From contig DAISJM010000002.1 of NCBI GenBank assembly GCA_036821485.1, positions 3,771 through 67,770 on the forward strand: a stretch of 64,000 nt of DNA, read 5' to 3'. The position numbers and the translations under genes are program-made. The notes beneath the pieces are model-generated. The model did not search any database and was not told the DNA's origin. It saw only the letters and a list, made by a program, of their open reading frames with translations. Shown here piece after piece: positions 637 through 43,561 of the stretch. This DNA comes from Verrucomicrobiota bacterium. GTDB lineage: Bacteria; Verrucomicrobiota; Kiritimatiellia; CAIQIC01; JAGNIJ01. Within the stretch, counting starts at the first letter, position 1, and the number at the start of each line of letters is the position of its first letter.

Positions 637-1200
637 CTAAGCCGGCGCGGAATCGGCTGCCGGGGCCTGGGGAACCGCCTGCGGTGCAGCGGCGGCCGGT
701 TGATTACCCAACAGCTCAAGTACCTCACGCTGAACGTGCTCGAGATCCGTCAGCTTCAACCCCGGGTCCGGCACCGTGAAACTCTCGCCCGTGCCACGGT
801 GTTCGTACACGTGGATTCGGGCGCCATCCTCCCGCACCTGCACATCGCGCTCAACCAGAACACGCCGCCGCTCCAGCATGACGGCGAGGATGAAGATGGC
901 ATTCCCGCGTGAAGGATCATTCGTCGCCATGAGTTCGCGGAGCAGCGACTCAGCCGTCTCTTTCTTGAGCGGTTCCGGAGCCGGCGGAGGTGGAAGCTTG
1001 AAGACGGATTTCCACGTGCTCTGCGCCCCCGCCTTGGACTGCGGCTTCTCCCAGCAGGTGCCGCAATAGTCGCCTCTCACGTATTCGCCCTGCTCGAAGC
1101 TCAACTGTGAGAAGAATGTCTCCAAATCAACAAAACCGCGGTTACAGCCCTTGCAGACGTCACTGCGAGCCCTGATGTTCCATTCCTGGTTTGTACTCAT
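637..1200 (-). CDS. hypothetical protein with N-terminal CxxC...CxxC zinc-ribbon-like motif
   Basis: The real product probably starts at the internal Met MSTNQEWNIRARSDVCKGCNRGF...CGTCW. The 401-aa track ORF is a GC-rich N-terminal extension that overlaps pgsA in another frame. Start 1200 lies 24 nt after the pgsA stop. Confidence 0.5.
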   Translation of the reverse strand: MSTNQEWNIRARSDVCKGCNRGFVDLETFFSQLSFEQGEYVRGDYCGTCWEKPQSKAGAQSTWKSVFKLPPPPAPEPLKKETAESLLRELMATNDPSRGNAIFILAVMLERRRVLVERDVQVREDGARIHVYEHRGTGESFTVPDPGLKLTDLEHVQREVLELLGNQPAAAAPQAVPQAPAADSAPA

Positions 1201-1223
1201 GAAGATCGCTCCGGCACGCGGGA

Positions 1224-1811
1224 TCAGTCTTTGCCCTGCAATAGATCCCGATGCTCCTGGAAGTAAAGAAGGCCCGAGGCAAGCGTGATGGCCGCCACAG
1301 CGGCCGAAATTGCGAGCGAAATATAGCCGAAACAGAAATCGTAGTTCTGCAGGAGCTTCTCCGGCGACCCGCGAAGCACATCGTGGCGAACCGCCGTCCC
1401 CAGCAGCAGCGCCACGATCGCCACGATCTGCCAGACGGTCTTGTGTTTGCCCCACTTGCCGGCGGAAACGATCTCGCCCTTGCTCGCCGCCAGCAACCGG
1501 AGACCCGTCACCAAAAATTCGCGGGAAATAATGACCACCGCAATCCATGCCGGCACGAGACGGAGTTCGACGAAGCTGACAAAGGCCGCGCAGACCAACA
1601 CCTTGTCCGTCAGCGGATCCATCAGCCTGCCGAACGCAGTGACGCCGTGACCACTGCGCGCGAGATAGCCATCGAGGTAGTCGGTGATCCCCGCGATGAC
1701 AAAAACCAGAAGTGCGAGACTCTTGGCGAAGGGGAACGAGATGGTCAGCAACGCCATCATGATCGCCGCAAGACCGAGGCGGCTCAGCGTAAGCATGTTG
1801 GGCACATTCAC
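1224..1811 (-). CDS. pgsA: CDP-diacylglycerol--glycerol-3-phosphate 3-phosphatidyltransferase
   Basis: 195 aa; CDP-alcohol phosphatidyltransferase motif DYLDGYLAR...G...G...D and multiple TM segments; 4-nt overlap with the upstream gene. Confidence 0.88.
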   Translation of the reverse strand: MNVPNMLTLSRLGLAAIMMALLTISFPFAKSLALLVFVIAGITDYLDGYLARSGHGVTAFGRLMDPLTDKVLVCAAFVSFVELRLVPAWIAVVIISREFLVTGLRLLAASKGEIVSAGKWGKHKTVWQIVAIVALLLGTAVRHDVLRGSPEKLLQNYDFCFGYISLAISAAVAAITLASGLLYFQEHRDLLQGKD

Positions 1812-2404
1812 GGCTTGCTCTCCGACGTCGAGCCACCCTCAATGTAGGAATCCGGCGGATCCATCACCACGGGCAGCGGCCCCCGTTCAACGTCCGCTGC
1901 AGGCGCCGGGGCCGACACGGTCTGAACCTTCTCGCCCTGTTCAACGGTACGCGCCGCACAGCGGCTGAGGGAAAGTCCCAGGATAACAACCAGCAACAAG
2001 ACTCCCCCGCCGATCGCGGCCGGGCGCTTCCAATTCCTCTGCGTGACAAACAACGTGGCCCACGGACGCCGGGGTATGACGGGCGCGGAATCGTCTGCAG
2101 GCATGTCCTCATCCGGAGGCGGCGGCACAGGCACCGGGCCCTCCGGCGGAATGAACTGCGGCCGCTCCTTCGGCGCATACGTGTCCATGTACTCGCGAAT
2201 GAGCGGCGCGGCATCGAGAGCCAGATACTCGGCATACAGCTTGAGAAAGCCCTTGGCGTAGATCGGCGCGGCCACGCGGCTATAGTCATCCCGCTCCATC
2301 GCCTCGATGGTCTGGATCTTCATACGCGTCGCGGCGGCCGCCTGCGAACAGGTGACCTTCTTGCGCTCGCGCGCGGCTTTGAGTGTTTGTCCCAGCGTGG
2401 GCAT
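1808..2404 (-). CDS. RodZ-like helix-turn-helix (XRE) membrane protein
   Basis: N-terminus MPTLGQTLKAARERKKVTCSQAAAATRMKIQTIEAMERDDY is an HTH_XRE/RodZ-type domain, followed by a Pro-rich linker and one TM segment. Start chosen at the internal Met at 2404; the track ORF extends to 2491 and would overlap ftsK. Confidence 0.7.
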   Translation of the reverse strand: MPTLGQTLKAARERKKVTCSQAAAATRMKIQTIEAMERDDYSRVAAPIYAKGFLKLYAEYLALDAAPLIREYMDTYAPKERPQFIPPEGPVPVPPPPDEDMPADDSAPVIPRRPWATLFVTQRNWKRPAAIGGGVLLLVVILGLSLSRCAARTVEQGEKVQTVSAPAPAADVERGPLPVVMDPPDSYIEGGSTSESKP

Positions 2405-2409
2405 GTTTC

Positions 2410-4839
2410 TTAAACTTCCGTCTCGTCGGTCGGATTCTGCGGAATCTCTCCGTCGAGGTCGATCAGAATTTCCCGCGGATCCGAACCACACGGCGGGCCA
2501 ACAACCCCGCGCTGCTCCAACAGGTCCATCAACCGCGCCGCCCGCGTGTACCCAATCCGCAGCCGCCGCTGCAGCGACGAGGTGGACGCCCGCTTCGTCT
2601 GGCGGATAATCTCGATTGCCGAATCAAGCAGGTCATCCTCCCCCATATCGGGCAAGTCGGGGGCGTTGCTGTCCATCTTGTCCTTGATGGTGTTTTCGTA
2701 CTGCGGCTGCCCCTGCTTCTTGATGAAATCGACGATTCTCCGCATCTCCGCGTCCGTGGTCATCGTGCCCTGCGCGCGGGTCAACTTGCCGCTGCCCGGC
2801 GGCAGAAAGAGCATATCGCCCTTGCCCAGAAGCTTGTCGGCACCGTTGGCATCGAGGATCGTGCGGCTGTCCACCTTCTGCGCCACCTGGAAGGAAATAC
2901 GCGCCGGGAAGTTCGCCTTGATCGTGCCGGTGATGACATTCACCGACGGCCGTTGTGTGGCGAGGATCATGTGGATGCCCACCGCACGCGACAACTGCGC
3001 GAGCCGGGCAATCCCGGTCTCGATTTCCGCCTGCGCCACCAACATCAAGTCCGCCAGCTCGTCCACCACGATCACGATGTATGGCAGCCGGTCCGGCGGC
3101 TCATCGCTCGGCTTCTCAGCCTCGCCCGGCGCGCCCTCGAAAAGTTCGGTCTGCTTCAGAATCGGCCGGGTGTTGTAACTCTTGATGTTGCGCACACCGA
3201 CCTTCGCGAAAAGCTTGTAGCGCTTCTCCATCTCGTTGATCGCCCAGCGCAGTCCGATGCTGACCTTCTTCGGATCGGTGATGACCGGAACGACCAGGTG
3301 CGGCAGGTGGTTGTAGGTGGAGAACTCGACGATCTTCGGGTCGATCAGCATGAGGCGCAGCTCGTCAGGCGTGCGCGACATCAGCAGGCCCGTCAGGATG
3401 GAGTTCATGCAGACCGTCTTGCCGGAGCCGGTCGCACCCGCGATCAGCATGTGCGGCATCTCCGCCAGGTCCGCCACAATCTCGTGACCGCCCACGTCCT
3501 TGCCGATGGCCAGCGGCAACGCGGCCTTCCCGCTCTGCCACGTTGCGCTCTCGATGAGCTCGCGCAGGAACACCACCGTCGTCTTCGAATTCGGCACCTC
3601 GATGCCGACCACGCCCTTGCCGGGAATCGGCGCCTGCACGCGGACGCTCTCCGCCTTCATCGCCAGCGCGATGTTGTTGCCGAGCGCGACGATCTTCTCC
3701 AGCCGCACGCCCGGCGCCGGCAAGAGCTCGTACCGCGTAACCACGGGGCCGCGCTCGACATTCGTCACGTCGACCTCGATACCGAACTCTGCAAAAGTCT
3801 CCTTCAGCACCACCGCACTGGCTTGGAAATCGCCGCGAATTTCCCGGTCCTTTTCAGGCGGTAACGGGTCCAGCATGGAGACGGGCGGCAGTTTGAAGGC
3901 AGAATTGGTCTGGCTGAAGAGGGGCTCCGGGTTGACGGGTTCCGGCGCGCGGACCGGCTTCGGACGTTCCTTCTTCGGCGGAGGCGGCAACTCCTCGACC
4001 TCTTCCTCCACCTCGGGAATCTCCGGCTCGGGCACCGCTCGCGCACCCCGTCCGGGCGTGATGATAACCGCCGGCCGAATGGCGGGTTTTTGCACAGCCG
4101 CCTCGCGCTCAGCCTTCTCCTGCTCTTGCTCGCGCATGACGTCTTCCAAACGCCGGCGCTGCTTCTCAACCTTGCGCTGCTCCCGCTCAATCTGCGACCG
4201 TTCATCGCGGTGCTCCGCGATCTTCTCATCCACCTTCTTAAACAGCGCCACGGCCAGCACCCCAATCGCGTGCGCAATCTGGAGAGGATGAATCTCGATG
4301 AAAAGAATCAGGCTGATCGCCAACAACGACGCCGCGATAATGCCCGTGCCCACCGTACCCAGCCACCGCACCAGCATTTCATCGGTCAGAAAGGACCCCA
4401 CCACACCACCCGGCCCGCAGGTGTTAAGCTTCTCCACAACCCCTTCCCACGCACCGGGTTGTAAATCGAAGATACAAAGCAGCGCCAAGAGCATCACGGT
4501 CAGCCAAACCGCCTTCGGCCAAACGCGCCCCTCGCGTTTGAAAATGAGGAGCAGGCCGATGATCATCAGCCCCGCCGGCAACAGATAGGCCCCAATGCCG
4601 AGGGCCATGAAGAAGAAGAAGGCAGTCCACGCGCCCACAGGACCGATGAAATTCTCGGCAGGCCGGTTTGGCGGCGATTTCAGCAGGGGAATATCGCCCG
4701 GTGCATAGGAAAACAGGCTGAGAAGAAACAGGAGGGCCACCGTCACCAGCAAAATGCCCCAAGCCTCCCGCCACCCGGTTCTAGCTATTTCCTTCCTTAC
4801 CGCCATGGCCGTACAAAATAGCAGTACCCCACGCCTCAA
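2410..4839 (-). CDS. ftsK: DNA translocase FtsK (FtsK/SpoIIIE family)
   Basis: 809 aa; N-terminal polytopic membrane domain, Pro/Glu-rich linker, ATPase core with Walker A GATGSGKT, and a C-terminal gamma winged-helix ...[29 protein letters not shown]. Confidence 0.96.
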   Translation of the reverse strand: [809 protein letters not shown]

Positions 4840-32264: not shown

Positions 32265-35207
32265 TTACCAGGGCGGTGTGGCTTCGATCCGCTGCACTTC
32301 CTGGATCGCCATCTGCATGGTCAGCATGTCACCCGCTTCCTTTGCCACCACCGCGTAGTCGCGCCAAAGATCCGCCTTCCAAGGTGCCAAGTCGGTCGCT
32401 TTTCTGAGCCATTCCTTGGCCGATGTCCAGTCGCCCTTGACCGTGCCGACATACTTGCCCTTGAGGGCCATGAAGAGCGGCGCCTCGGGATAGAACGACA
32501 TGGCGCGGTCGATAAGCTGACCAGCAAATTCCTGGTTCCCAGCCTGCATGGCCAACACAGTCAGCCGGTGAAGCGACCAGAAATCATCCTGATTCAGCCG
32601 CAGCACCAACTGGTATTGGTACGCCGCGTCCTGCAGATTCCCCATCCCCTGTAGCGTCTCTGCGGAAGACCGGAGCAGCCGCGTGAAATCATCGCGGATC
32701 ACGGGGTTGCGCGGCGCCAGCGCAGATGCCTTCTCCAACAGGTCATACGCCATCTGATTCTCACCGGCCGTCTTCCGAGCATTGGCCTCCAGCGCGACCT
32801 TCAAACCCTCATGTTCATCCAGAACTGTCTTTGCCGCGGCCTCGTCGAGTCCCTCGAGAAACGACTGTGGCAAGGCCGTGAAATTCTGCAGCAGCAGTTC
32901 CATGTTGTCGTTGCTGGTGTAGCGCAGCGCATTCTTCGGCGCAGAAAACTCTACGTAAGGATGCGCGTCCGTGTTCAGCGCTCCCTTGCCGAATAACGCG
33001 TCGGACTTGGACAGGTCCGCCACGAACATGCCAAGAATCAACTCCGGCGCTTCGATACCAATGCCTGCAAGCGACGCTTTCACTTCGGGAATCGCGAACC
33101 GTGAACGAAGCACGGCCGGGTCGAGTTTCATCTCGCCATTGAAGCCGAGAAGCAGCGTGTCATCCCCCGTATAGAACATCGCGCACTTGGGGAACACCAT
33201 CACAAAGGACCTCACGATCATCGAAAAGTCTTCCTTCGACAACTCGTAGAGCGGGAGGTACTGGCACATGATGCCGCCCTCAGCCAGCCTCATCCGGGCC
33301 TGGCGGAAGTGCTCCACCGTGTAGAGATTGTTGGCGCCCGAATAGACGGGCTCAAAAGGATCCGACGTAATCACGTCGTACTTCATCGTTGTGCAAAAGA
33401 GATGATTGCGCCCGTCGCCCATCGTCACGTGTGCGCGAGGCGACGCCAGCACGTCGTGATTCCAACGGGCAAAAGCCTTGGCCACAGCGCGAACCGCCGG
33501 CTCAATCTCGACGACCTCGAGATGATCGACCGGATAACAGCTCAGCGCACCGAAGGTCACCCCGGCACCCAGACCGATGTTGACCACCCGCTTGGGGTTG
33601 GGATGGAAGAGCATCGGCAGGTGCCCCATCATCCGCTGCAGCATCATGCTGCGCGAGGTCGTGTCAGCCTCCACCTTGCCATCGCTCGAGAAGTAAAGTG
33701 CCTGATCGTCCGACCGCGTCACCGCCACGTTGGCCAAGAGCCCTTCCTTGTAGAGCAGCACTTCCTCGGAGTCCATGCGCTCGCGCAACACGATATCGCC
33801 GTCCTTAAGGAAACCCCATGGAGCGAAATAGGGTCCAACCGCCATCAGCTTCTGATTCCACCCTGGATGTGTCGCATAGCCCCATGTGCCAAGCAGCAAC
33901 ACCATGGCCAGAGCAATACCGACCGGCTTCACCGCCGCACGTGAGGTCAACACCAGCAGCGCGCCAACCACGAGCGCCAATCCGGCTAACACCAGCAATG
34001 ACCGCTCTGCACCCAGCATGGGCAGGAGCAGGAATCCCCCTGCGCAGGAACCCAACACGCCGCCGATGGTGTTCAGCGTGTAGGCCCGGCCAACCGCACG
34101 GTGCGAGACGCCGAGCGCGCGGCGCACCGTCTTGGTCGCCGCCGTAAACGAAAGCCCCATGAATATCGACGGAACCAGTAGGAAGAAGGTCGTGATAAGG
34201 AACCGTGCTCCGGTGATCGCCTCCCACGTAAGCGACTCCCGCTTCAAGTACTCAAGCAGGAATATCGGCATGCGGTTAAACCAACGAAGCGACAACACGG
34301 TGAAGAGGCCAATCGCAATCTGTGCGCCGCCGAACACGAGCACCGGGAACCGGCTCCGGTCCGCCAACCAGCCGAACGCCAGCGAACCCAATGCCATACC
34401 AAACAGCATGACGGACAGCATTGCGCTGAACGAGTACGTCGTCGATCCGAACACCAGCACAAGCGCACGGAACCAAACGACCTCCAGCGCCAGCGCCACG
34501 AAGCCGGAGAGTAACACCGCCGCGGCCAACCCGGTCCCCACGTTCGGCATCCCAACCTCCAACGCATCCCGGGTACCCGGCACCGGCTCGTCGACCTTCC
34601 CCGTGGCACCCAGCATCAACGCTCCGCCTGCAACCAGCAGGTTCAACAACACCGCCACCGTGTTTGCCCCGGACACACCAATGCGCGCGATCAGGATGAA
34701 TCCACTGGCCAGCAATCCCGCCACCGCACCCAGCGTGTTGATCCCATACAACCAGCCCAGTCGCGACCCAAAGCGCTCATCTTTTCGCAACAATGCACGG
34801 GCGAGTACGGGCAACGTGCCGCCCATGCACATCGTCGGCACCAGCATGACCGCAATGGCCAGCGTGAAGCGGAGCGGTGTCAGCACCCAAAGCGAGTCGG
34901 ACATGTGCTGGTACGCAGCCCGGTAAGTAATCCGCATGAGAGAGAACAGCACCGGCATCGCGAGCGCATAAAGGCCAATCACGAGATTCAACAGACCGAA
35001 CAGTCGGACAGGCCGCCAACTGCGTCCCGCCTGTTTGCCAAAGAGATGGGCGCCGAAAGCCAGCCCTCCCATGTAGGCCGTGAAGACCGTCGTTGCCGCA
35101 TAAACCGTGTTGCCAAAGATGAGCCCAAGCTGCCGCATCCAAAGCAGCTCGTATACCAACGCGGCAAACCCCGAGCAGAAGAAGAGCAGACTAACCACAA
35201 TCGTCAT
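32265..35207 (-). CDS. fused MFS-like membrane domain / spermidine-synthase-like (class I SAM-MTase fold) protein with C-terminal TPR repeats
   Basis: N-terminal ~480 aa with 12 or more TM segments; central VVNIGLGAGVTFGALSCYPVDHLEVVEIEPAV...DVITSD (spermidine synthase / PABS-like); C-terminal TPR repeats. Start placed at MTIVVSLLFFCSG (35207). Confidence 0.75.
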   Translation of the reverse strand: MTIVVSLLFFCSGFAALVYELLWMRQLGLIFGNTVYAATTVFTAYMGGLAFGAHLFGKQAGRSWRPVRLFGLLNLVIGLYALAMPVLFSLMRITYRAAYQHMSDSLWVLTPLRFTLAIAVMLVPTMCMGGTLPVLARALLRKDERFGSRLGWLYGINTLGAVAGLLASGFILIARIGVSGANTVAVLLNLLVAGGALMLGATGKVDEPVPGTRDALEVGMPNVGTGLAAAVLLSGFVALALEVVWFRALVLVFGSTTYSFSAMLSVMLFGMALGSLAFGWLADRSRFPVLVFGGAQIAIGLFTVLSLRWFNRMPIFLLEYLKRESLTWEAITGARFLITTFFLLVPSIFMGLSFTAATKTVRRALGVSHRAVGRAYTLNTIGGVLGSCAGGFLLLPMLGAERSLLVLAGLALVVGALLVLTSRAAVKPVGIALAMVLLLGTWGYATHPGWNQKLMAVGPYFAPWGFLKDGDIVLRERMDSEEVLLYKEGLLANVAVTRSDDQALYFSSDGKVEADTTSRSMMLQRMMGHLPMLFHPNPKRVVNIGLGAGVTFGALSCYPVDHLEVVEIEPAVRAVAKAFARWNHDVLASPRAHVTMGDGRNHLFCTTMKYDVITSDPFEPVYSGANNLYTVEHFRQARMRLAEGGIMCQYLPLYELSKEDFSMIVRSFVMVFPKCAMFYTGDDTLLLGFNGEMKLDPAVLRSRFAIPEVKASLAGIGIEAPELILGMFVADLSKSDALFGKGALNTDAHPYVEFSAPKNALRYTSNDNMELLLQNFTALPQSFLEGLDEAAAKTVLDEHEGLKVALEANARKTAGENQMAYDLLEKASALAPRNPVIRDDFTRLLRSSAETLQGMGNLQDAAYQYQLVLRLNQDDFWSLHRLTVLAMQAGNQEFAGQLIDRAMSFYPEAPLFMALKGKYVGTVKGDWTSAKEWLRKATDLAPWKADLWRDYAVVAKEAGDMLTMQMAIQEVQRIEATPPW

Positions 35208-35253
35208 GTTGTATCCGTTATGCGGCCGGCTCGAAGAATCCCCGCGCGCGGGA

Positions 35254-37086
35254 TCAGAGATCGGGCAGCACCCTTGTTTCCTTGAGATAACCAATCACCC
35301 GCGACACAGCTTGAGCCGCTACGCATGGAGCGTCGAACTGCAGGTCCGCCTCTCCCTCCGCGCGCGACCCTATACGAATCGAAACCATTTTCGCAGGGCT
35401 TACCAACGTCTCGATGTCCTTGAGATTCTTGTCGGTAAGCAGTTGCGCTGTGCAAATGACGAGGAGCCCGGCGTCAAGCAGCACGTGCAGCATTTCGCCG
35501 AGCCGGCGGACCTGCTCGCGTGCCAGGCGATCATCCCCAAGACTCTCGGCATGGATATCCGCATCCAACCCGTGCACCACACTGCCCATGCCCAGGAAAT
35601 ACACCACGCGGCCCATGTTGAAGAGTTCCTGCTCCAGCGTCCGGGCCAGTTCCTTCCGGCCGACGCCAAGCTTGCCGGTGATGACGATCAGCGCCGCCTG
35701 TTGGGCAAAACGCTCGGCCCGCAATTCGGGCGATATGCGACTGCGCACCCATTTCTCGTCGCGGACGAAGGCCTCCCGCCGGAGATCCGACTCCTCATCC
35801 GGTAACGCTTCGCGAATGATCCCGCCGCCGGCAATGTTGTAGTTGTCGACGATGACAAACCGTCCGGTCCGCGGCGATTCCGTAATAATGTCGAACGCCG
35901 CCGGACGACGCGTCCTGAGTACGCACTCGGCCACTTCGTGCCGGTTCACCGACTTCCGCTCGCGATCCACCCCCAAGGTCGAGGCATCCAGCACCCACGA
36001 CACTTCCTCGACTTGCACGGGCAAATCCATCGCGCCGAGCTTGAACTTATAAGTCTTCTCCGGCGTCATCGGCTGCCGCGCCAACCAGAAAAGGTCCACG
36101 CGAAACCGCGATGTGACCTTTGGCGGTGGCTCGCCTTCGCGCGAGATCATCTCCCCGCGCGCCACGTAAATCTGTTCCGTCAGCGTGATGCCGACCGGCT
36201 CGCCCACCGCCGCCGACTGCGGTGCAGTCCTGTTGAATGCTTCAATACTCTGGACCACTGCGCGCTTGTTGGACGGCGAAAAGAGAACCGCGTCCCCCAC
36301 GCGAATCGTGCCGGCCTCGACGCGACCGGCCACAATCCGCCGCTCGTCGCCGAGCGCGGTGAACTTGTAGACATCCTGCACCGGCATACGCAGAGGCTTG
36401 TCGACATCCAACCGGCCGAGCTCGAAGCGATCAAACGTCTCCAGCACCGTAGGGCCCTTGTACCACTTCATCTTTTCCGAGGCTGCGGCCACATTAAAGC
36501 CGTTCCGTGAGTCCACCGGGATGAAGGCCACCGGCTTGGCTTTGATCTGCCCGAGGAACTGTCGGTACTCGCGCTCGATCTGTTCAAAAGCCTCCTGCCG
36601 GTAGTCCACAAGATCCATCTTGTTGATCACCACCACGAATTGGTCGATGCCCAGGATAGAGAGGAAATAGCCGTGCCGCCGCGAATTCTCGCGCACACCT
36701 TCGTGTGCGTCGATCAGGAGCAGCGCCGCGTCCGCGCGGGCCGCGCCCGACACCATGTTCTTCAGAAATTCGATATGCCCGGGCGCATCGATGATGATGT
36801 AATCGCGTTTGGCCGTCTTGAAGAAGCACCGCGCGGAGTCGATGGTTATGCCCTGCGACTGCTCATCCTTCAGTGCATCCAGCAGGTAGGCGTATTCCAG
36901 CGGCTTGGAGTTCCGCTCGCACTGCGCGCGGATCGCCTCCAGCTTGCCCTCGGGCAGATTCCCTGTGTCGGCCATGAGCCGCCCCACCAGCGTGCTCTTG
37001 CCATGGTCCACATGCCCGACCACCACCACACTCAGCCGCTCGCGGGTGTTGGTCTCGGCGCTTCTTGTTGGAGAGTCAGGGTTCAA
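35254..37086 (-). CDS. cysN: sulfate adenylyltransferase subunit 1 (CysN) fused to a degenerate APS-kinase-like C-terminal domain
   Basis: GTPase motifs [22 protein letters not shown]. The C-terminal ~170 aa align to the APS kinase fold, but the P-loop reads GKLGVGRKE instead of G(L)SGSGKST. Confidence 0.85.
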
Positions 37087-37127
37087 TGGATTCCAAGTTC
37101 CAGGTTCCTAATTTCAAGTTCTGCCTG

Positions 37128-38009
37128 CTACATGTAGCCTTCTCTTCGCAAGGTCTCGAGGCCACCGCCGTCTTCCTTGTCCTGTGCGCGACCGGATCGT
37201 TCCGCGATGCGCGCGAACTTGCCGCTGCGCAGTTCCTCCACAATGTCGCGCGGACACTTCGCGGTCGACGCCACCGGCTTCGTGCAGGGCGCACAGCCAA
37301 GCGAGCGGTAGCGTTGTCCGTTGCCCTGGTCGAAGTAGAGTGACGTCACCGGCACCTTCTCGCGGTCGATGTATTCCCAGATGTTCAGCTCCGTCCAATC
37401 GAGCAACGGGTGCACGCGAATGTGGGCGCCCGGTGGAAAATCGGTATTGAACTGGTTCCAGAATTCCGGCGGCTGGTCGCCGATATTCCAGTCGTTGTTC
37501 CGGTCGCGCGGCGAGAAGTAACGCTCCTTCGACCGGCTCCCCTCCTCGTCCGCACGAACGCCGACGATGACCCCCGTGTAGGGCTCCGGGTTGCTCTCCA
37601 CCTCGTACTGCCCCGTGCGATGGTTCAAGCGGTAACGCGGCCACTCGCCGGACAACGTCTTCTTCAGCGCCTCGGTCTTCAGACTCGCGCAACACTCCAG
37701 CCGCGTCGCCATCCCGTCTGGAAAAGTCTGCTTCGCCTCAAGCGCCTGCCGGTTCATGCCGTAGACCATGATCAGTTTCATCTCGCGCGCCAGCCGGTCG
37801 CGGTAGGTGATCATCTCCGGGATCTTGAAGTGGGTATCGACGTGCACCAGCGGAAATGGCACGTGACCGAGAAAGGCCTTGCGCGCGAGCCACAGCATCA
37901 CGGTGCTGTCCTTGCCGATGGACCAGAGCATGCAGAGGTTCTTGAACTTCGCGTAGGCCTCGCGAAGGATGTAGACGCTTTGACTTTCCAGTTGCTCGAG
38001 ATGATCCAT
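37128..38009 (-). CDS. cysD: sulfate adenylyltransferase subunit 2 (CysD)
   Basis: [22 protein letters not shown]...[12 protein letters not shown] (PAPS reductase / ATP sulfurylase small subunit family). Start at the internal Met at 38009; the long upstream extension is rejected. Confidence 0.88.
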
Positions 38010-38026
38010 GACGACGCTCCGACGGG

Positions 38027-38641
38027 CTACGCGGACTTCCCGCGCGCCCCACGGTTCGCGCCCATCATACCGTGCTTTTTCAGCAACGCAACCAGATCGG
38101 TCACGCAGGATTCGACGGAACGGCCGGCCGTGTTGATCCGCAACGCAGGCTTGCGCGGAGGCTCGTAGGGCGCGCTGACTCCCGTGAAATCCCGCACCGC
38201 GCCCGCCCGCGCCTTGCGATACAGCCCCTTCACGTCGCGTCGCTCGCACACTTCGAGCGCCGTCGCCACATGAATCTCAAAGAAGCGGTCGCGACCGATG
38301 ATCTGCCGCGCGCGGTCGCGCGCTGCCCGATACGGCGAAATGAACGCCGTGATGCAAATCACGCCCGCCTTCGCGAAGAGCGCCGCCACCTCGGCCAGCC
38401 GGCGAATGTTCTCGTCGCGGTCGCGAGCCGAGAACCCGAGGTCGCTGCACAGCCCCGTACGAATAATATCTCCATCCAACACGAAAACGTTGCGACCCAA
38501 TCGAAGCATCCGCTGCTCCAACGCCTCCGCCAGCGTGGACTTGCCCGACGACGGCAGCCCCGTGAACCACACAACGCAACCGCGCGGCCGCACGGCCCCT
38601 GCAGATCCTGATTTTGTTTTAGCGGTGCGACGCTTCATCAT
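38027..38641 (-). CDS. cysC: adenylyl-sulfate kinase (CysC)
   Basis: Intact P-loop [13 protein letters not shown], then DGDIIR and the rest of the APS kinase fold. Confidence 0.88.
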
Positions 38642-38645
38642 GAAA

Positions 38646-39407
38646 TCAGCTCGCGTGAATCAATCCCCACTGACGACGAATGCGATGCTCGATTCGACCG
38701 AAAACCAACCGGTCCACCAACAGGCCGATCACGATGGTCATCAGCATGATGCCGATGACCTGCGCGACATCGTTCAACTCGCGCCCCATGTGCAGCAGGA
38801 AGCCAAGGCCGATCGAGGACTTGATCAACTCCGCGGAAACCGCGCCATGCCAACCCATCGTCCACCCCAGCTTGATCCCGGTGACGATGCTTGGCAGTGC
38901 AGCAGGCATGATCACGCGATACCACATCTCACGGCGCGGCGTCCCCAGCGTCTGGGCGGCGCGCAGGTACGGCGGCGGGATGTGCCCGATTCCGTCGGCC
39001 GTCGCAATCGCCACCGCAGCCATGGAACTCATCACGATGACGAAGTAGATGCCCGTATCCTTCAATCCAAAGATCAGCAACGAGATCGGCACCCAGGCTG
39101 CCGACGGCAGTGTCTGCAGGCCCAGGAACAAAGACCGCAACGCCTCCGCGACCGTCCGATTCATTCCCATCATCAGCCCAAACACGAGGCCGATGACCGC
39201 CGAAAGCCCAAAGCCTATCCCCATGCGGAGCAATGTCGTCCGAATGCTCGGCCACAGAAACCCGTCCGCGGCCAACTCCCGCAGGCGGCTCAACACGATC
39301 AGGGGCGATGGCAACATGTACTTCGGCGCCACACCGAGGTCGAACACCGCCTGCCAGATCGCCAGCAAGAGGACATAGAACAACAGTATCTTAAGCTTCC
39401 GTTTCAT
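38646..39407 (-). CDS. ABC transporter permease (SsuC/TauC/NrtB family)
   Basis: MKRKLKILLFYVLLLAIW...; six TM segments; EAA-like loop ...AAQTLGTPRREMWYRVIMPAALPSIVTG. Confidence 0.85.
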   Translation of the reverse strand: MKRKLKILLFYVLLLAIWQAVFDLGVAPKYMLPSPLIVLSRLRELAADGFLWPSIRTTLLRMGIGFGLSAVIGLVFGLMMGMNRTVAEALRSLFLGLQTLPSAAWVPISLLIFGLKDTGIYFVIVMSSMAAVAIATADGIGHIPPPYLRAAQTLGTPRREMWYRVIMPAALPSIVTGIKLGWTMGWHGAVSAELIKSSIGLGFLLHMGRELNDVAQVIGIMLMTIVIGLLVDRLVFGRIEHRIRRQWGLIHAS

Positions 39408-40209
39408 GATTCGTATCGCCCGTCGGCGGCAGTTCACTCCGGAGTTCGCCCAGAATCTGGCCCGCGAGACGGCTCACGTCCGGATCGTAGAAATCCCTCG
39501 GTCGCGCCAGCGGGACCGCGATCTCGCGCTTGATTCGCCCCGGCCTCGAAGTCAAGACCACCACGCGATCCCCCAGGCACGCCGCCTCGCGCACGTTGTG
39601 CGTCACAAATACACCCGTCTTCTTCGTACGCAGGAAGATTTCCTGGATCTGCGCGTAGAACCGCTCGCGCGTCAACGCGTCGAGCGAGCCAAAGGGCTCG
39701 TCGAACAGGATGATGTCCGGCTCGGGTGTGAGTGCGCGCGCCAACGCAACCCGCTGCCTCATGCCACCCGACAACTCGTGAATGCGCGACTTCTCGAAGC
39801 CGCTGAGCTGGACCATGTCGAGGTAGTGCCGCGCGCGCTCGAAACGCTCCTTGCGGTTAAGCTGTCGCTGATGCTCGATGCCGAAGAGCACATTGCCGAT
39901 GACCGAGCGCCACGGAAAGAGTGCGTGCTCCTGGAACATCATCATGCGGTCCGAGCCGGGCCCCTTCACCGGCTTGCCATCCACCAACACCTTGCCCGTC
40001 GTTGGAAACTCCAGCCCTGCGATCAGGTTGAGCAACGTCGTCTTGCCGCAGCCCGACGAGCCGACCATGCAGAGAAACTCGCCCGCGGCCACATGGAGCG
40101 TGATGGCCTGAACGGCCTCGACCACCTGCGTGTTGGAGGTGAAGACCTTCGTCACGCCCTCGAGGCTGAGCTTCGGGGTTGCCCCCGTCTGTGCAACGGT
40201 ATCCGCCAT
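39391..40209 (-). CDS. ABC transporter ATP-binding protein (SsuB/TauB/NrtD family)
   Basis: GSSGCGKTTLLN, LSGGMRQRVALARAL, ILFDEP. Confidence 0.9.
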   Translation of the reverse strand: MADTVAQTGATPKLSLEGVTKVFTSNTQVVEAVQAITLHVAAGEFLCMVGSSGCGKTTLLNLIAGLEFPTTGKVLVDGKPVKGPGSDRMMMFQEHALFPWRSVIGNVLFGIEHQRQLNRKERFERARHYLDMVQLSGFEKSRIHELSGGMRQRVALARALTPEPDIILFDEPFGSLDALTRERFYAQIQEIFLRTKKTGVFVTHNVREAACLGDRVVVLTSRPGRIKREIAVPLARPRDFYDPDVSRLAGQILGELRSELPPTGDTNHETEA

Positions 40210-40210
40210 T

Positions 40211-41263
40211 CTACTTCACTTCAGGCAGGCCCTTTTCCTTCAGGACTTCGTTCAGAATCGACAGGCTGTAGATGCCATCCAACTTGGGGGATTCCTTGAG
40301 AAACCCGGCTTCAAAGGCGTCCTGCGCGGACTTGAAGAGCGAGCTGGAAACAGGATCCCAAGTGAACTCGACCCGCTGGAACGCCTTCTGGATCACTTCG
40401 GGATCCAACGCCTTACCCGTATCCTTCTTGATCTGTTCATTGACCACGGCCGCAGCGACCGCCTTGTCCGCGTTCAGCTTCTGCGTAATTTCAACATGCG
40501 CCTGCAGCAATTTCTTCACAAGCTCGGGATTCTTCGCGAGGAATTTCCGGCTGACAATGAGATGCGTCGTGACATACCGGCCTTCCGGCCAGAGCGAACT
40601 CTCTTCCAGGAACACCTTGCCTCCCCCATCCTTCTCCAGCCGCGACACCCAAGGCTCCACCGTCCACGCGCCATCGATTTCCTTCTTCTGCATCATCAAG
40701 AGCTGGTCGGGATTGGCCAGCGGCATAACCGTGAGCGTGCCCCCTTTTTCGGCGAATTTGTAGCCGTGCTTGGCAAACCACGCGCGCGCTGCCACATCCT
40801 GCGTATTGCCGAGCTGCGGCGTGGCGATGGTTTTGCCGTCGAAATCCTTGTCGGTTGCGATGTTCGAATCCGGCCGGACGACCAGCGCCGCGCCGCCGCT
40901 CGCACCGCCCGCCACAATGACGAAGCTCTCCCCCTCCGACTTGATGAACCCGTTGACGGCAGGATTCGGGCCGATGAAGGTCGCATCAATTGCGTCTGCA
41001 AACAACGCCTCGACGGCGGAAGGTCCGGCGTTAAACACCGTCCACTTGATCGGCACGCCGACGGCTTTCTCAAACTCACCCGACGCCTTGGCCATCAAGG
41101 CCTGCGCGTGCGTCACGTTGGGGAAATGGCCCAATCGCAATTCCGTGGCCTGCTGCCCGAACACCGCCGATGCACCCAGCACGCTCAACGCCAGAAGACA
41201 ACCCACCCATGTGCGCGACTTCACCGAAGCCCTCCTTGTTTGGACCTGAATCGCAGCCGCCAT
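40211..41263 (-). CDS. ABC transporter substrate-binding protein (SsuA/NrtA/TauA-like aliphatic sulfonate/nitrate family)
   Basis: Signal peptide, then LRLGHFPNVTHAQALMA...; NMT1/SsuA-like periplasmic binding fold. Confidence 0.8.
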   Translation of the reverse strand: MAAAIQVQTRRASVKSRTWVGCLLALSVLGASAVFGQQATELRLGHFPNVTHAQALMAKASGEFEKAVGVPIKWTVFNAGPSAVEALFADAIDATFIGPNPAVNGFIKSEGESFVIVAGGASGGAALVVRPDSNIATDKDFDGKTIATPQLGNTQDVAARAWFAKHGYKFAEKGGTLTVMPLANPDQLLMMQKKEIDGAWTVEPWVSRLEKDGGGKVFLEESSLWPEGRYVTTHLIVSRKFLAKNPELVKKLLQAHVEITQKLNADKAVAAAVVNEQIKKDTGKALDPEVIQKAFQRVEFTWDPVSSSLFKSAQDAFEAGFLKESPKLDGIYSLSILNEVLKEKGLPEVK

Positions 41264-41334: not shown

Positions 41335-41766
41335 TCATCCAGCGGACGGCAACCCCGTACGCCAGAGAATTCCGGGAATCCCGGCAAAGTGCCGGTCGTG
41401 GCTGATGATCTCTGCGTGGATCGATTGCGCGCAGACGGCAATGGCGAGATCGGTAAGCGGCAACACCCGGCCCTTACGGTCCAACTTCCACGCCAGATTC
41501 GCCACAGCTTCCCAAATAGCCGCGGTGGTCTCCACGGAGGGAATGAGATCGAAGAACTCCTCCATCTCCGACCGGACTGCCGGGTTAATGACCCCCCGGA
41601 TGACTTCCGCCCGGATCAGGCCGCAAGACGCCAGCGCCCCGGACTGGACATAGGGCGCCAGCATTCTGACGGGACTGTGACCACGCCTCATCCAGTCGAT
41701 ATAGACCGTGGAATCAACGAGCAGAACGGCCACGAGGCGTCTCCCGGTTGCGCATGGCGACCACAT
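41335..41766 (-). CDS. vapC: type II toxin VapC (PIN-domain ribonuclease)
   Basis: ...VAVLLVDSTVYIDW...PLTDLAIAVCAQSIHAEIISHDRHF. The true start is probably a few codons inside and overlaps the vapB stop. Confidence 0.8.
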   Translation of the reverse strand: MWSPCATGRRLVAVLLVDSTVYIDWMRRGHSPVRMLAPYVQSGALASCGLIRAEVIRGVINPAVRSEMEEFFDLIPSVETTAAIWEAVANLAWKLDRKGRVLPLTDLAIAVCAQSIHAEIISHDRHFAGIPGILWRTGLPSAG

Positions 41767-42028: not shown

Positions 42029-42847
42029 TCAGAACCGATACGTTCCGGTAAGCTCCACGTTCTGCCGGTCGCCAAATCCGCCTTCAAGCGAAATTTCGAC
42101 GTTCCGACCGACGCACAGGGCCACCCCCGCAAGGTAATTCCAAGGGGTGTCATCCTTAAGGCGCACGTTGTAATCCACCGGGCCAAGGCCGGTGATATTG
42201 ATCGAGCCCTTGTGCTCTTCCGTCACCTGCTGGTACATCGCGCCGAGCCAGAGAATCACGTTGTTCTTCTCGCCCGGCCCCTTGAGCTGCGCGCCCACGC
42301 GGGGCTGCAACACCCAGGCATTGATCGTGGAATCCTGCTCGTCCAACTCCGTGCCGGTGTAGATGCCGGTCAGCGAAGCAAAGTATTCTTTCCAGCCGCC
42401 GGCCAACACCGCGCCACCGCCGTACACAATGCCGTTGTAGTCCACCTCGATCTTCGGCAGCGGCGGCATCATCTTGATGTCGGTCTGGCCGTCGATATTC
42501 CCCAGCAGCGCAAAGACGTTAAGGAAGGGAAGCAGCCAGACGTCGAACTTCACATTCTCTTCAATGGTCTCATTCTCAATACTCAGCGCGTCTACGCCTG
42601 CGCTGAGTTGCGCGATCATGGCGTTGACTTCCGGAATCGGCGAACTCGCCTGCCAGCGGTCCAGTGAGTAGTCCTGGCTTTGCCAGTAGAAGGTCAGCCC
42701 CACCCCCATCGGCAGCGGCATCTCTTCATTCTTCGCGGCAGGACGCCCCCATGGCAGAACGTCGCCCGGTCCCCCAGCCCATGCCGCACCCACGCCCGCA
42801 AGAACCACAACCAGAAGAATGAAGAATAAGCCTCTCTTCACAATGCT
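42029..42847 (-). CDS. putative outer-membrane beta-barrel protein
   Basis: GTG start preceded by GGAGGA; signal peptide KRGLFFILLVVVLAGVGAAWA; alternating amphipathic strands; C-terminal ...LTGTYRF with the terminal Phe typical of outer-membrane proteins. The long track ORF extension to 43177 is rejected. Confidence 0.55.
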   Translation of the reverse strand, partial: SIVKRGLFFILLVVVLAGVGAAWAGGPGDVLPWGRPAAKNEEMPLPMGVGLTFYWQSQDYSLDRWQASSPIPEVNAMIAQLSAGVDALSIENETIEENVKFDVWLLPFLNVFALLGNIDGQTDIKMMPPLPKIEVDYNGIVYGGGAVLAGGWKEYFASLTGIYTGTELDEQDSTINAWVLQPRVGAQLKGPGEKNNVILWLGAMYQQVTEEHKGSINITGLGPVDYNVRLKDDTPWNYLAGVALCVGRNVEISLEGGFGDRQNVELTGTYRF

Positions 42848-42979
42848 CCTCCACGTTTGGGTTGCGAGGCACGTTCGCCTCTTGGCTGAAGGGTAGCCGG
42901 TAGCCCGATACGCGACAATCATGAATTCACGTCCAAATGTCTTGAGACCACGCCGGGGTTGAATCACATTGTCCGCAGC

Positions 42980-43561
42980 ATGAAACACGCGGGCATCGTT
43001 CTGGCGGCGGGCGCTTCGTCGCGTATGGGTCAACCCAAGGCACTCCTGCCCACACCCGGCGGCGTGCCGCTTGCGATTCACCAGGCGCGACTCCTCCAAG
43101 CCGCCGGCTGCGCACCCGTCATCATCGTCCTCGGTGCCCAAGCCAACCGCATCCGCCCACAACTCGCCGGCTTCCAAGTCGCCCTTAATAAGGAATGGGG
43201 AACCGGCCGGGTTTCATCGGTCCAGACCGGCCTGCGCGCGGCCGCGGCAGACGGCTACATCATTCTTCCCGTCGACACTGTGGGCGTTCAAGCCGGCACC
43301 CTGAAGCGACTGCGCGAAACGGCCGACACCACCACCGCCCACGCAATCCGACCGACGTTCGGCGGCAAGGAAGGCAAGGTGATGTGGATCTCCGCCACAC
43401 TCGCCGCCACTATCCTCCAGCTCGACCCCAAAAACGAAAACTCCCGGCTCGACCACTTCTTCCGCACCCAGTCCGAGCAACTCCCCTGCCCCGACCCCGC
43501 TCTCCTGAACAATGTGAACACACCGGAGGATTGGGAAAAGGCGCGTGGAACGCTAAGGTAA
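42980..43561 (+). CDS. MobA-like NTP-transferase (molybdenum cofactor cytidylyltransferase MocA-like)
   Basis: MKHAGIVLAAGASSRMGQPKALL...; GT-A-like nucleotidyltransferase fold; convergent with the molybdoenzyme operon. Confidence 0.75.
   Translation: MKHAGIVLAAGASSRMGQPKALLPTPGGVPLAIHQARLLQAAGCAPVIIVLGAQANRIRPQLAGFQVALNKEWGTGRVSSVQTGLRAAAADGYIILPVDTVGVQAGTLKRLRETADTTTAHAIRPTFGGKEGKVMWISATLAATILQLDPKNENSRLDHFFRTQSEQLPCPDPALLNNVNTPEDWEKARGTLR

Follow-up and report, generated by a model that had tools for sequence, protein, structure and literature searches.

A degenerate, lid-less APS-kinase-fold domain on the CysN subunit of bacterial CysDN-type ATP sulfurylases

Why should the CysN subunit of a bacterial ATP sulfurylase carry a degenerate adenosine 5'-phosphosulfate (APS) kinase-fold domain when an intact APS kinase is encoded in the same operon? 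The question is raised by a cysC-cysD-cysN gene set on contig DAISJM010000002.1 (assembly GCA_036821485.1) of a Verrucomicrobiota bacterium. The window analysed was a stretch of 64,000 nucleotides (nt), positions 3,771 to 67,770 of that contig, and coordinates given without a locus handle are positions in the whole window. The cysN gene with the C-terminal dead APS-kinase-fold domain is termed cysN* and its product CysN*. A role of the domain in enzyme assembly was favoured on balance. The genes and protein segments in question are the following (aa, amino acids).

38027-38641, minus strand: cysC, intact stand-alone APS kinase, 204 aa (Pfam APS_kinase, E 3.5e-63 over the full profile)
37128-38012, minus strand: cysD, catalytic ATP sulfurylase subunit, 294 aa from ATG (NF003587, 344 bits against a cut-off of 195)
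35254-37086, minus strand: cysN*, CysN GTPase subunit of ATP sulfurylase with the dead domain, 610 aa, stop codon included in the coordinates (TIGR02034)
35797-37086, minus strand: CysN body, residues 1-430, G domain and EF-Tu-like domains II and III (GTP_EFTU 2.6e-43, GTP_EFTU_D2, GTP-eEF1A_C; CysN chain 1zun_B, E 1.6e-72)
35698-35796, minus strand: linker, residues 431-463 (profile alignment to residues 4-25 of 3uie)
35257-35697, minus strand: pseudo-APS-kinase core, residues 464-610, five-stranded P-loop-NTPase fold without lid
35653-35676, minus strand: degenerate P-loop GKLGVGRK, residues 471-478
35584-35595, minus strand: LGMG replacing LDGD, residues 498-501
35491-35517, minus strand: EQVRRLGEM, residues 524-532, start of dimer-interface helix alpha2

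The body of CysN* is that of a regular CysN. The score with TIGR02034 was 343.3 bits, above the cut-off of 336.1, the GTPase G motifs including NKMD were intact, and cysD lies adjacent, its end separated from cysN* by 41 nt (cysD upstream). The start codon of cysN* is uncertain: TTG at 37086 was used here, and a 99%-identical homologue (P0003) has 601 aa. The first-pass annotation had placed an intact CysC two genes upstream, which was borne out by the full-profile Pfam match and by the complete motifs, including FTGVSAPYE and the P-loop GLPSSGKST at 38534-38560. Both P-loops, this one and GKLGVGRK, had been quoted exactly.

About 180 residues of CysN* follow domain III. Residues ~464-610 matched Pfam APS_kinase above the gathering score (31.6 bits against 21.1, E 2e-07), and the match covered only positions 2-80 of the 152 in the profile. 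The profile-profile comparison (hhalign) of 120 CysN* domains with 52 canonical CysC of the same loci extended end to end with a probability of 99.3% and E 1e-20. In the AlphaFold model of full-length CysN* (mean predicted local distance difference test score, pLDDT, 85.9) a five-stranded alpha/beta domain was formed after residue 464, and the domain modelled alone reached a pLDDT of 83.7. With this domain model, the top 50 Foldseek matches in the PDB were all APS kinases or APS-kinase-like domains fused to ATP sulfurylase, the best with E 6e-09. Because of the Pfam, profile-profile and Foldseek matches, the likeness of the tail to APS kinase is far beyond chance, and the fold assignment of the first-pass annotation stands.

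The linker is also of kinase type. The stretch with R442, W446, S449 and R456 is a homologue of the 'NxxWHxxxVxxxxR' segment at the N-terminus of APS kinases of the plant, fungal and E. coli types (3uie, E 4.7e-22 with the domain profile); R442 and W446 are nearly invariant in the family and R456 belongs to the invariant set. This homology points to descent from a complete kinase domain. The CysC of the window begins ~20 residues ahead of its P-loop and is without the N-terminal segment found in many APS kinases, yet the segment is kept in the linker of the dead domain.

The residues required for catalysis and ligand binding were compared next. Their roles were taken from the M. tuberculosis CysC structures (PMC4373884), and the family counts refer to 120 CysN* domains.

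Second P-loop Gly: Asp or Glu in 52 of 120 (~43%)
P-loop Lys (Lys456): Arg or Lys
Mg-binding Ser (Ser457): Lys in 116 of 120
Mg-water ligand Asp478: Gly in 118 of 120
Catalytic base Asp480: Gly in 93 of 120
Phosphosulfate-binding Arg483: Leu, Val or Ile in 120 of 120, Val in the CysN* of the window
Adenine-stacking Phe492: variable
Arg497: kept in 82 of 120
Ile-Ser backbone site within FISP: TAxxL, with Ser-Pro replaced by Glu/Leu
Lid Arg559 and Lys562: deleted

Both aspartates of LDGD are Gly in the CysN* of the window (LGMG), and the P-loop GKLGVGRK does not fit the Walker A pattern GxxxxGK[ST]. Among the 120 best full-length homologues, GK[ST] was kept in the tail of one (P0077) and LDGD at the kinase position in none. 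The alignment of the CysN* and CysC profiles contained a single gap of 32 residues, which corresponds to the whole lid (CExRDxKGLY...FTGxxxPYExP); in the AlphaFold model merely a short loop joins strands 4 and 5 at this place. The first-pass annotation had called the domain probably dead on account of its P-loop and had proposed an alignment for the Walker A and DGD motifs. Both motifs were indeed found to be lost, and the losses go further than had been listed, comprising the Lys, the Ser, both Asp, the APS-binding Arg and Phe, FISP and the lid. Judged from these replacements, APS-kinase activity of the domain can be excluded with high confidence, and canonical binding of ATP, APS or 3'-phosphoadenosine 5'-phosphosulfate (PAPS) by the domain family is unlikely.

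CysN* proteins bear the public names 'bifunctional enzyme CysN/CysC', 'adenylyl-sulfate kinase' and 'GTP-binding protein'. The first two would agree with a still-active, non-canonical APS kinase, i.e. a true NodQ-type bifunctional enzyme. Such an enzyme is extremely unlikely, since the domain has neither the catalytic base Asp nor the Mg-binding Ser and Asp, and the Lys and Arg of the lid have been lost together with the Arg and Phe that bind APS. The score of CysN* with the bifunctional CysNC/NodQ model NF004035 was 429.2 bits against a cut-off of 715, that of the tail with the NCBIfam APS-kinase model was 49.7 bits against 163, and a separate cysC is retained in most genomes.

The first-pass annotation had implicitly treated the dead domain as a peculiarity of one genome. 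This did not hold: the dead domain is standard in a large family. The 120 homologues that matched best over the full length (52-99% identity) came from Verrucomicrobia, Planctomycetes, Gemmatimonadetes, Calditrichia, Bacillota and other assemblies, and nearly all of them had the motifs TGxxxxx[RK]K and Y[FY]LG[IM]G[SN]V[LV][YH]G[VL]DADL. A word-seeded search with the C-terminal domain alone gave only 2 matches, so that exhaustive HMMER and full-length searches were needed; the exhaustive HMMER search with the tail alone resulted in 671 cluster representatives at E <= 1e-3, of which 134 had E <= 1e-10; true kinases first appeared at ~1e-10. When one genome of each species was scanned for the peptide pattern G[SN][VLI][LV][YH]G[LV]D[AV]D, 388 loci were confirmed in a dozen or more phyla (Verrucomicrobiota, Planctomycetota, Chloroflexota, Bacillota, Spirochaetota, Calditrichota, Gemmatimonadota, Acidobacteriota, Thermotogota and others), including cultured Halanaerobium, Halanaerobacter and Frackibacter strains and the complete genome of Candidatus Uabimicrobium amorphum. 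Several cultured Halanaerobiales each contained two separate loci of dead-domain CysN: L048 and L049 in Halanaerobium kushneri, L047 and L080 in H. saccharolyticum WC1, L046 and L062 in Frackibacter WG13.

In the alignment of 70 sequences, 11 tail residues were invariant (R456, G471, E485, L488, G506, D510, E524, R527, R528, E531, G540) and many more nearly so. The share of columns conserved to at least 90% was 19% in the dead core, compared with 23% in CysN domains II and III. By these measures the domain appears to be under selection and not decaying. A functionless relic, i.e. a decaying remnant of a CysNC fusion that is kept as its deletion is neutral or destabilising, is in accord with the clear loss of the catalytic function and with the existence of degeneration intermediates. 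These form a minority. P0175 and P0077, among others, retain Walker A and are without LDGD and the lid, while P0235 (832 aa) has a middle domain with GLPGCGKE, LDAAT, SPF and a part of the lid, followed by a live kinase domain. The intermediates suggest a stepwise loss from a NodQ-type ancestor. A relic is nevertheless very unlikely: the same motifs are found over a dozen or more phyla, the fold is predicted with confidence, the conservation is comparable to that of CysN domains II and III, and a neutral remnant would be truncated or scrambled at such divergence.

The conserved residues coincide with the surface by which APS kinases form dimers. The dimer interface of M. tuberculosis CysC consists mainly of helices alpha2 and alpha3. 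The interface residues of Entamoeba APS kinase are I334, Y335, N345, E349, R363, F366, L370 and R373, and Gly at the N345 position is a mark of the 'open' dimer type (PMC13213808). Through the printed alignment of the Entamoeba chain, these positions were mapped to V495, Y496, G506, D510, R528, E531, aliphatic 535 and D538 of CysN*. Four of the eight belong to the invariant set, which numbers 11 in a region of 175 residues, an enrichment with hypergeometric P = 5e-4; each of the remaining four is either 89-96% conserved or aliphatic throughout. At the start of helix alpha2, E524, R527, R528 and E531 were invariant in 70 of 70 aligned sequences. The same interface positions vary among the neighbouring true kinases.

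Since the fold, the cross-over segment and the dimer-interface residues are preserved, the C-terminal domain is, on balance, probably a pseudo-kinase assembly module that originates from a NodQ-type ancestor and dimerises CysD-CysN; we infer both the dimerisation and its effect on the enzyme. According to this explanation, APS would be made by CysD and the GTPase CysN and phosphorylated to PAPS by the separate CysC. The C-terminal ~180 residues of CysN* would descend from the kinase half of a NodQ/CysNC-type fusion. The sites for ATP and Mg, the catalytic base, the whole of the mobile lid and the greater part of the APS/PAPS pocket have since been lost. Because the catalytic residues, the pocket and the lid are gone, the domain is expected neither to phosphorylate APS nor to bind sulfonucleotides in the canonical manner. 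Selection has instead maintained the fold of the core, the N-terminal cross-over segment and the residues through which APS kinases form their two-fold dimer. Most likely, then, the domain would self-dimerise and join two CysD-CysN heterodimers into (CysD-CysN)2, and it probably stabilises CysN too. The assembly role is supported by the observation that the dead domain is kept whatever type of kinase accompanies it, and also without a nearby cysC. Of the roles named by the first-pass annotation, PAPS feedback found no residue-level support, whereas scaffolding fits better, the conserved residues coinciding with the dimer interface.

Three points weigh against the assembly module. Several of the interface residues (Y, G, D, RR, E) are shared with active kinases, in which they lie near the active-site loops, and fold stability could explain their retention. 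The family-specific charges K478 and D508, together with the Arg at the Arg497-equivalent position (82 of 120), leave room for an unrecognised ligand site. Plain CysN, e.g. that of E. coli, works without such a domain, and the advantage of dimerisation is unexplained.

The relation of the dead domain to the live kinase was followed in 44 full-flank loci, i.e. those with at least 4 kb on each side; a fetched locus comprised ~8 kb either side. A canonical kinase gene (Walker A and DGD) was present within the locus in 38 of the 44, usually directly before cysD or directly after cysN*, therefore a separate intact cysC is the rule for the CysN* family. The neighbouring kinases were varied and included, besides plain CysC, the following fusions.

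L043 9317-10678 and L065 8435-9832: CysQ (inositol-monophosphatase family)-CysC fusions, Gemmatimonadota and Acidobacteriota
L015 4883-5665 and L063 2376-3101: DUF2061 membrane-domain-CysC fusions, Spirochaetota and Myxococcota
L021 and L057: Sat-CysC fusions

A kinase gene was not found nearby in six of the 44 loci, and five of these were examined. Two of the five, L018 and L055, are assimilation operons in which CysH has the CC...CxxC cysteines typical of Fe-S APS reductases. In L018 (6657-11883), cysD-cysN* is accompanied by CysH, a pyridoxal phosphate-dependent enzyme and an aminotransferase, and in L055 (1-8546) by CysH, sulfite reductase, a ferredoxin-type oxidoreductase and an unannotated open reading frame (ORF) of 380 aa. 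As assimilation operons with APS reductase, these two need no kinase. Two more, L019 and L044, are situated in polysaccharide clusters. In P0184 (771 aa; L083 107-2422), the CysN body, the dead domain and a canonical live kinase domain form one chain, followed by cysD; P0139 and P0183 are three-part chains of the same kind. Since P0184 holds both the dead and the live domain in one chain, the two are not redundant.

Thermodynamically, the formation of APS is unfavourable, and ATP sulfurylase is inhibited by APS as its product, which would make a coupling of the sulfurylase to the kinase worthwhile. Such coupling would be provided if the dead domain were a docking site for CysC, pseudo-dimerising through the old interface with one stand-alone CysC subunit and tethering the kinase for direct hand-on of APS. 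The canonical cysC in 38 of the 44 loci agrees with this, the three chains with dead and live domains (P0184, P0139, P0183) may be read as a Rosetta-stone hint of interaction, and in the window the N-terminal cross-over segment is present in the dead domain and missing from CysC. However, the partner kinases are of several unrelated architectures and vary at the interface positions (Y/E/T, G/H, E/Y/F, D/K/R), whereas the interface of the dead domain is invariant. Many partner CysC possess their own N-terminal segment, and the six loci without a nearby cysC include the two APS-reductase assimilation operons. CysC docking is thus considered unlikely.

Two specific forms of complementarity between the dead domain and CysC were rejected. 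Complementation of a segment-less partner CysC by the WH...R segment of the dead domain is not general: the segment is absent from the CysC of the window and of the Verrucomicrobiota and Chloroflexia loci, but the CysC of Halanaerobium, Calditrichota and many others have their own. The charge and shape complementarity between the interface of the dead domain and that of the neighbouring CysC gave no consistent pattern, the partner residues being heterogeneous.

It is also conceivable, if doubtful, that the lid-less domain acts as a general adaptor for APS hand-off, recruiting CysC, CysQ-CysC, DUF2061-CysC or APS reductase through the old dimer interface and the cross-over segment, or as a ligand sensor at a remodelled K478/D508/D510 site. 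In either case, the domain would decide whether APS goes to reduction or to sulfation.

A sensor of the fungal kind was weighed separately. The kinase-like domain of Penicillium ATP sulfurylase binds PAPS and is allosteric (PMC3734648, PMC13213808), and the fungal APS-kinase-like domain forms kinase-type dimers within the enzyme (PMC13213808). With this precedent, the dead domain of CysN* might bind PAPS, APS or another nucleotide and feed back on CysDN. The fold is the same, 1m8p and 1i2d being at ranks 31 and 35 among the Foldseek matches; a basic pair, R/K477 and K478, is conserved in the old P-loop; and most members have an Arg at or next to the second phosphosulfate-binding position. The Penicillium domain (residues 396-573, exact match to 1M8P and 1I2D) was placed in the same residue table as CysN* and the canonical kinases. 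In it, the Lys of the P-loop, the second Asp and the two Arg that bind phosphosulfate are all present, as are the stacking Phe, the FISP Pro and the full lid; this retained pocket and lid are consistent with PAPS binding (PMC3734648). In CysN*, only the second Arg of these pocket residues survives, in about two thirds of the family, and the lid is gone, so that a second stacking Phe is missing and the site cannot close over a ligand. The Asp or Glu that replaces the second P-loop Gly in 52 of the 120 domains should repel phosphate. Allosteric sensing by the dead domain is therefore quite unlikely.

The genomic setting of cysN* in the window is a minus-strand operon of six tightly spaced genes, encoding an SsuA-family binding protein, an ABC (ATP-binding cassette) ATPase, a permease, CysC, CysD and CysN*. 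The first three constitute the importer.

40211-41263, minus strand: SsuA-family periplasmic binding protein (TIGR01728, 188 bits against a cut-off of 163.5)
39391-40209, minus strand: ABC ATPase
38646-39437, minus strand: permease
38646-41263, minus strand: NitT/TauT-family ABC importer, three genes in one operon with cysC-cysD-cysN*

The linkage to a sulfonate/nitrate-type ABC importer, reported in the first-pass annotation, was reproduced by the TIGR01728 match. The same six-gene block was present in a 71%-identical relative (L084), with the importer genes at 844-3470 and a MarR-type regulator in front. As a part of a conserved unit the importer was rejected: it is limited to this closest lineage and was absent in the P0012 and P0010 loci and in 80 genome loci. 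A sulfonate importer is an odd partner for sulfate activation, and the substrate may be sulfate or a sulfate ester; the matches of the importer to the NCBIfam SaoX/P/A models fell below their cut-offs.

The ORF after cysN* (1009 aa, 32265-35294, minus strand) has a membrane region resembling the major facilitator superfamily, a spermidine-synthase-like domain and tetratricopeptide repeats. It overlaps the end of cysN* by 41 nt if the first TTG is the start, and it is not conserved downstream of cysN* in the relatives. Upstream of the operon, at a distance of 71 nt, lies a PIN-domain gene of the same orientation (41335-41766, minus strand), and beyond it an ORF of 382 aa (42029-43177, minus strand) had no Pfam match. 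In several relatives, genes for NeuB, CMP-sugar synthetase, glycosyltransferase and dTDP-sugar enzymes were found beside cysC-cysD-cysN* (L081 11834-21833; L084 6954-14929; the flanks of L044 and L019). These polysaccharide and nonulosonic-acid neighbours hint that PAPS feeds glycan sulfation; no sulfotransferase was identified there.

No dedicated model for the dead domain of CysN* was found in Pfam-A (2025) or NCBIfam 20.0. No description of a dead kinase domain on CysN was found in the searchable full-text literature, PMC1780047, PMC4373884, PMC3734648, PMC13213808, PMC6286981, PMC5498476 and PMC3141025 included, a coverage that leaves out subscription journals and does not prove absence. 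A survey of translational GTPases assigned NodQ by the Pfam kinase domain (PMC1780047), and a review makes the general remark that kinase-like domains occur on some sulfurylases (PMC3734648). Sulfate-activating fusions in which one half is dead are known; the lid-less form on the CysDN type is apparently undescribed. Under the current public names, CysN* may be wrongly credited with PAPS synthesis when the metabolism of uncultured Verrucomicrobiota, Planctomycetota, Gemmatimonadota, Chloroflexota, Spirochaetota, Halanaerobiales and others is reconstructed, and the misannotation weighs most where a separate cysC is absent. A dedicated family model could easily be built from TGxxxxx[RK]K ... Y[FY]LG[IM]G[SN]V[LV][YH]G[VL]DADL ... 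EHxRRLxE. The family gives a handle on the assembly of the sulfate-activating complex and on possible APS channelling. It is also a clear natural case, in a CysDN-type ATP sulfurylase, of a pseudo-enzyme domain that serves a role other than catalysis; the fungal case, which evolved independently, is parallel but has other features retained.

Among the known systems, plain CysN of the E. coli type (TIGR02034) shares with CysN* the GTPase body, the CysD partner and a score above the family cut-off; the plain protein stops after domain III, whereas CysN* continues for ~180 residues. The closest architecture is that of NodQ/CysNC (Rhizobium NodQ, M. tuberculosis CysNC, Pseudomonas CysNC), in which the CysN GTPase, the 'WH...R' linker and the APS-kinase-fold domain follow each other in the same way, with CysD as the partner in a cysD-cysN operon. 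NodQ/CysNC is the likely ancestor of the CysN* architecture. Unlike in NodQ/CysNC, the kinase half of CysN* is without the Walker A Lys and Ser, LDGD, the lid and FISP, and the kinase step is left to the separate cysC. In the Thiobacillus denitrificans enzyme (3CR8) and the Entamoeba histolytica APS kinase, as in CysN*, one half of a former bifunctional sulfate-activating enzyme is kept in a non-catalytic form with a structural or regulatory role; in T. denitrificans the dead sulfurylase domain is thought to stabilise the oligomer. Both are mirror images of CysN*, as it is the sulfurylase half, of the Sat type, that is dead and the kinase that is alive.

The ATP sulfurylase of Penicillium chrysogenum (PDB 1I2D, 1M8P) resembles CysN* in having an inactive APS-kinase-fold domain at the C-terminus in an organism with a separate active APS kinase. 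The equation with the fungal PAPS-binding domain, drawn by the first-pass annotation, holds for this architecture and fails for the pocket, the lid, the origin and the type of host enzyme. The fungal host is a homo-oligomeric enzyme of the Sat type, unrelated to CysDN, whereas the host of the CysN* domain is the CysN GTPase. The profile of the CysN* domain matched true APS kinases with E 5e-22 and the fungal domain with E 0.01. Because the match to the true kinases is far better, the two domains arose independently, and their resemblance is one of convergent architecture and not of shared mechanism.

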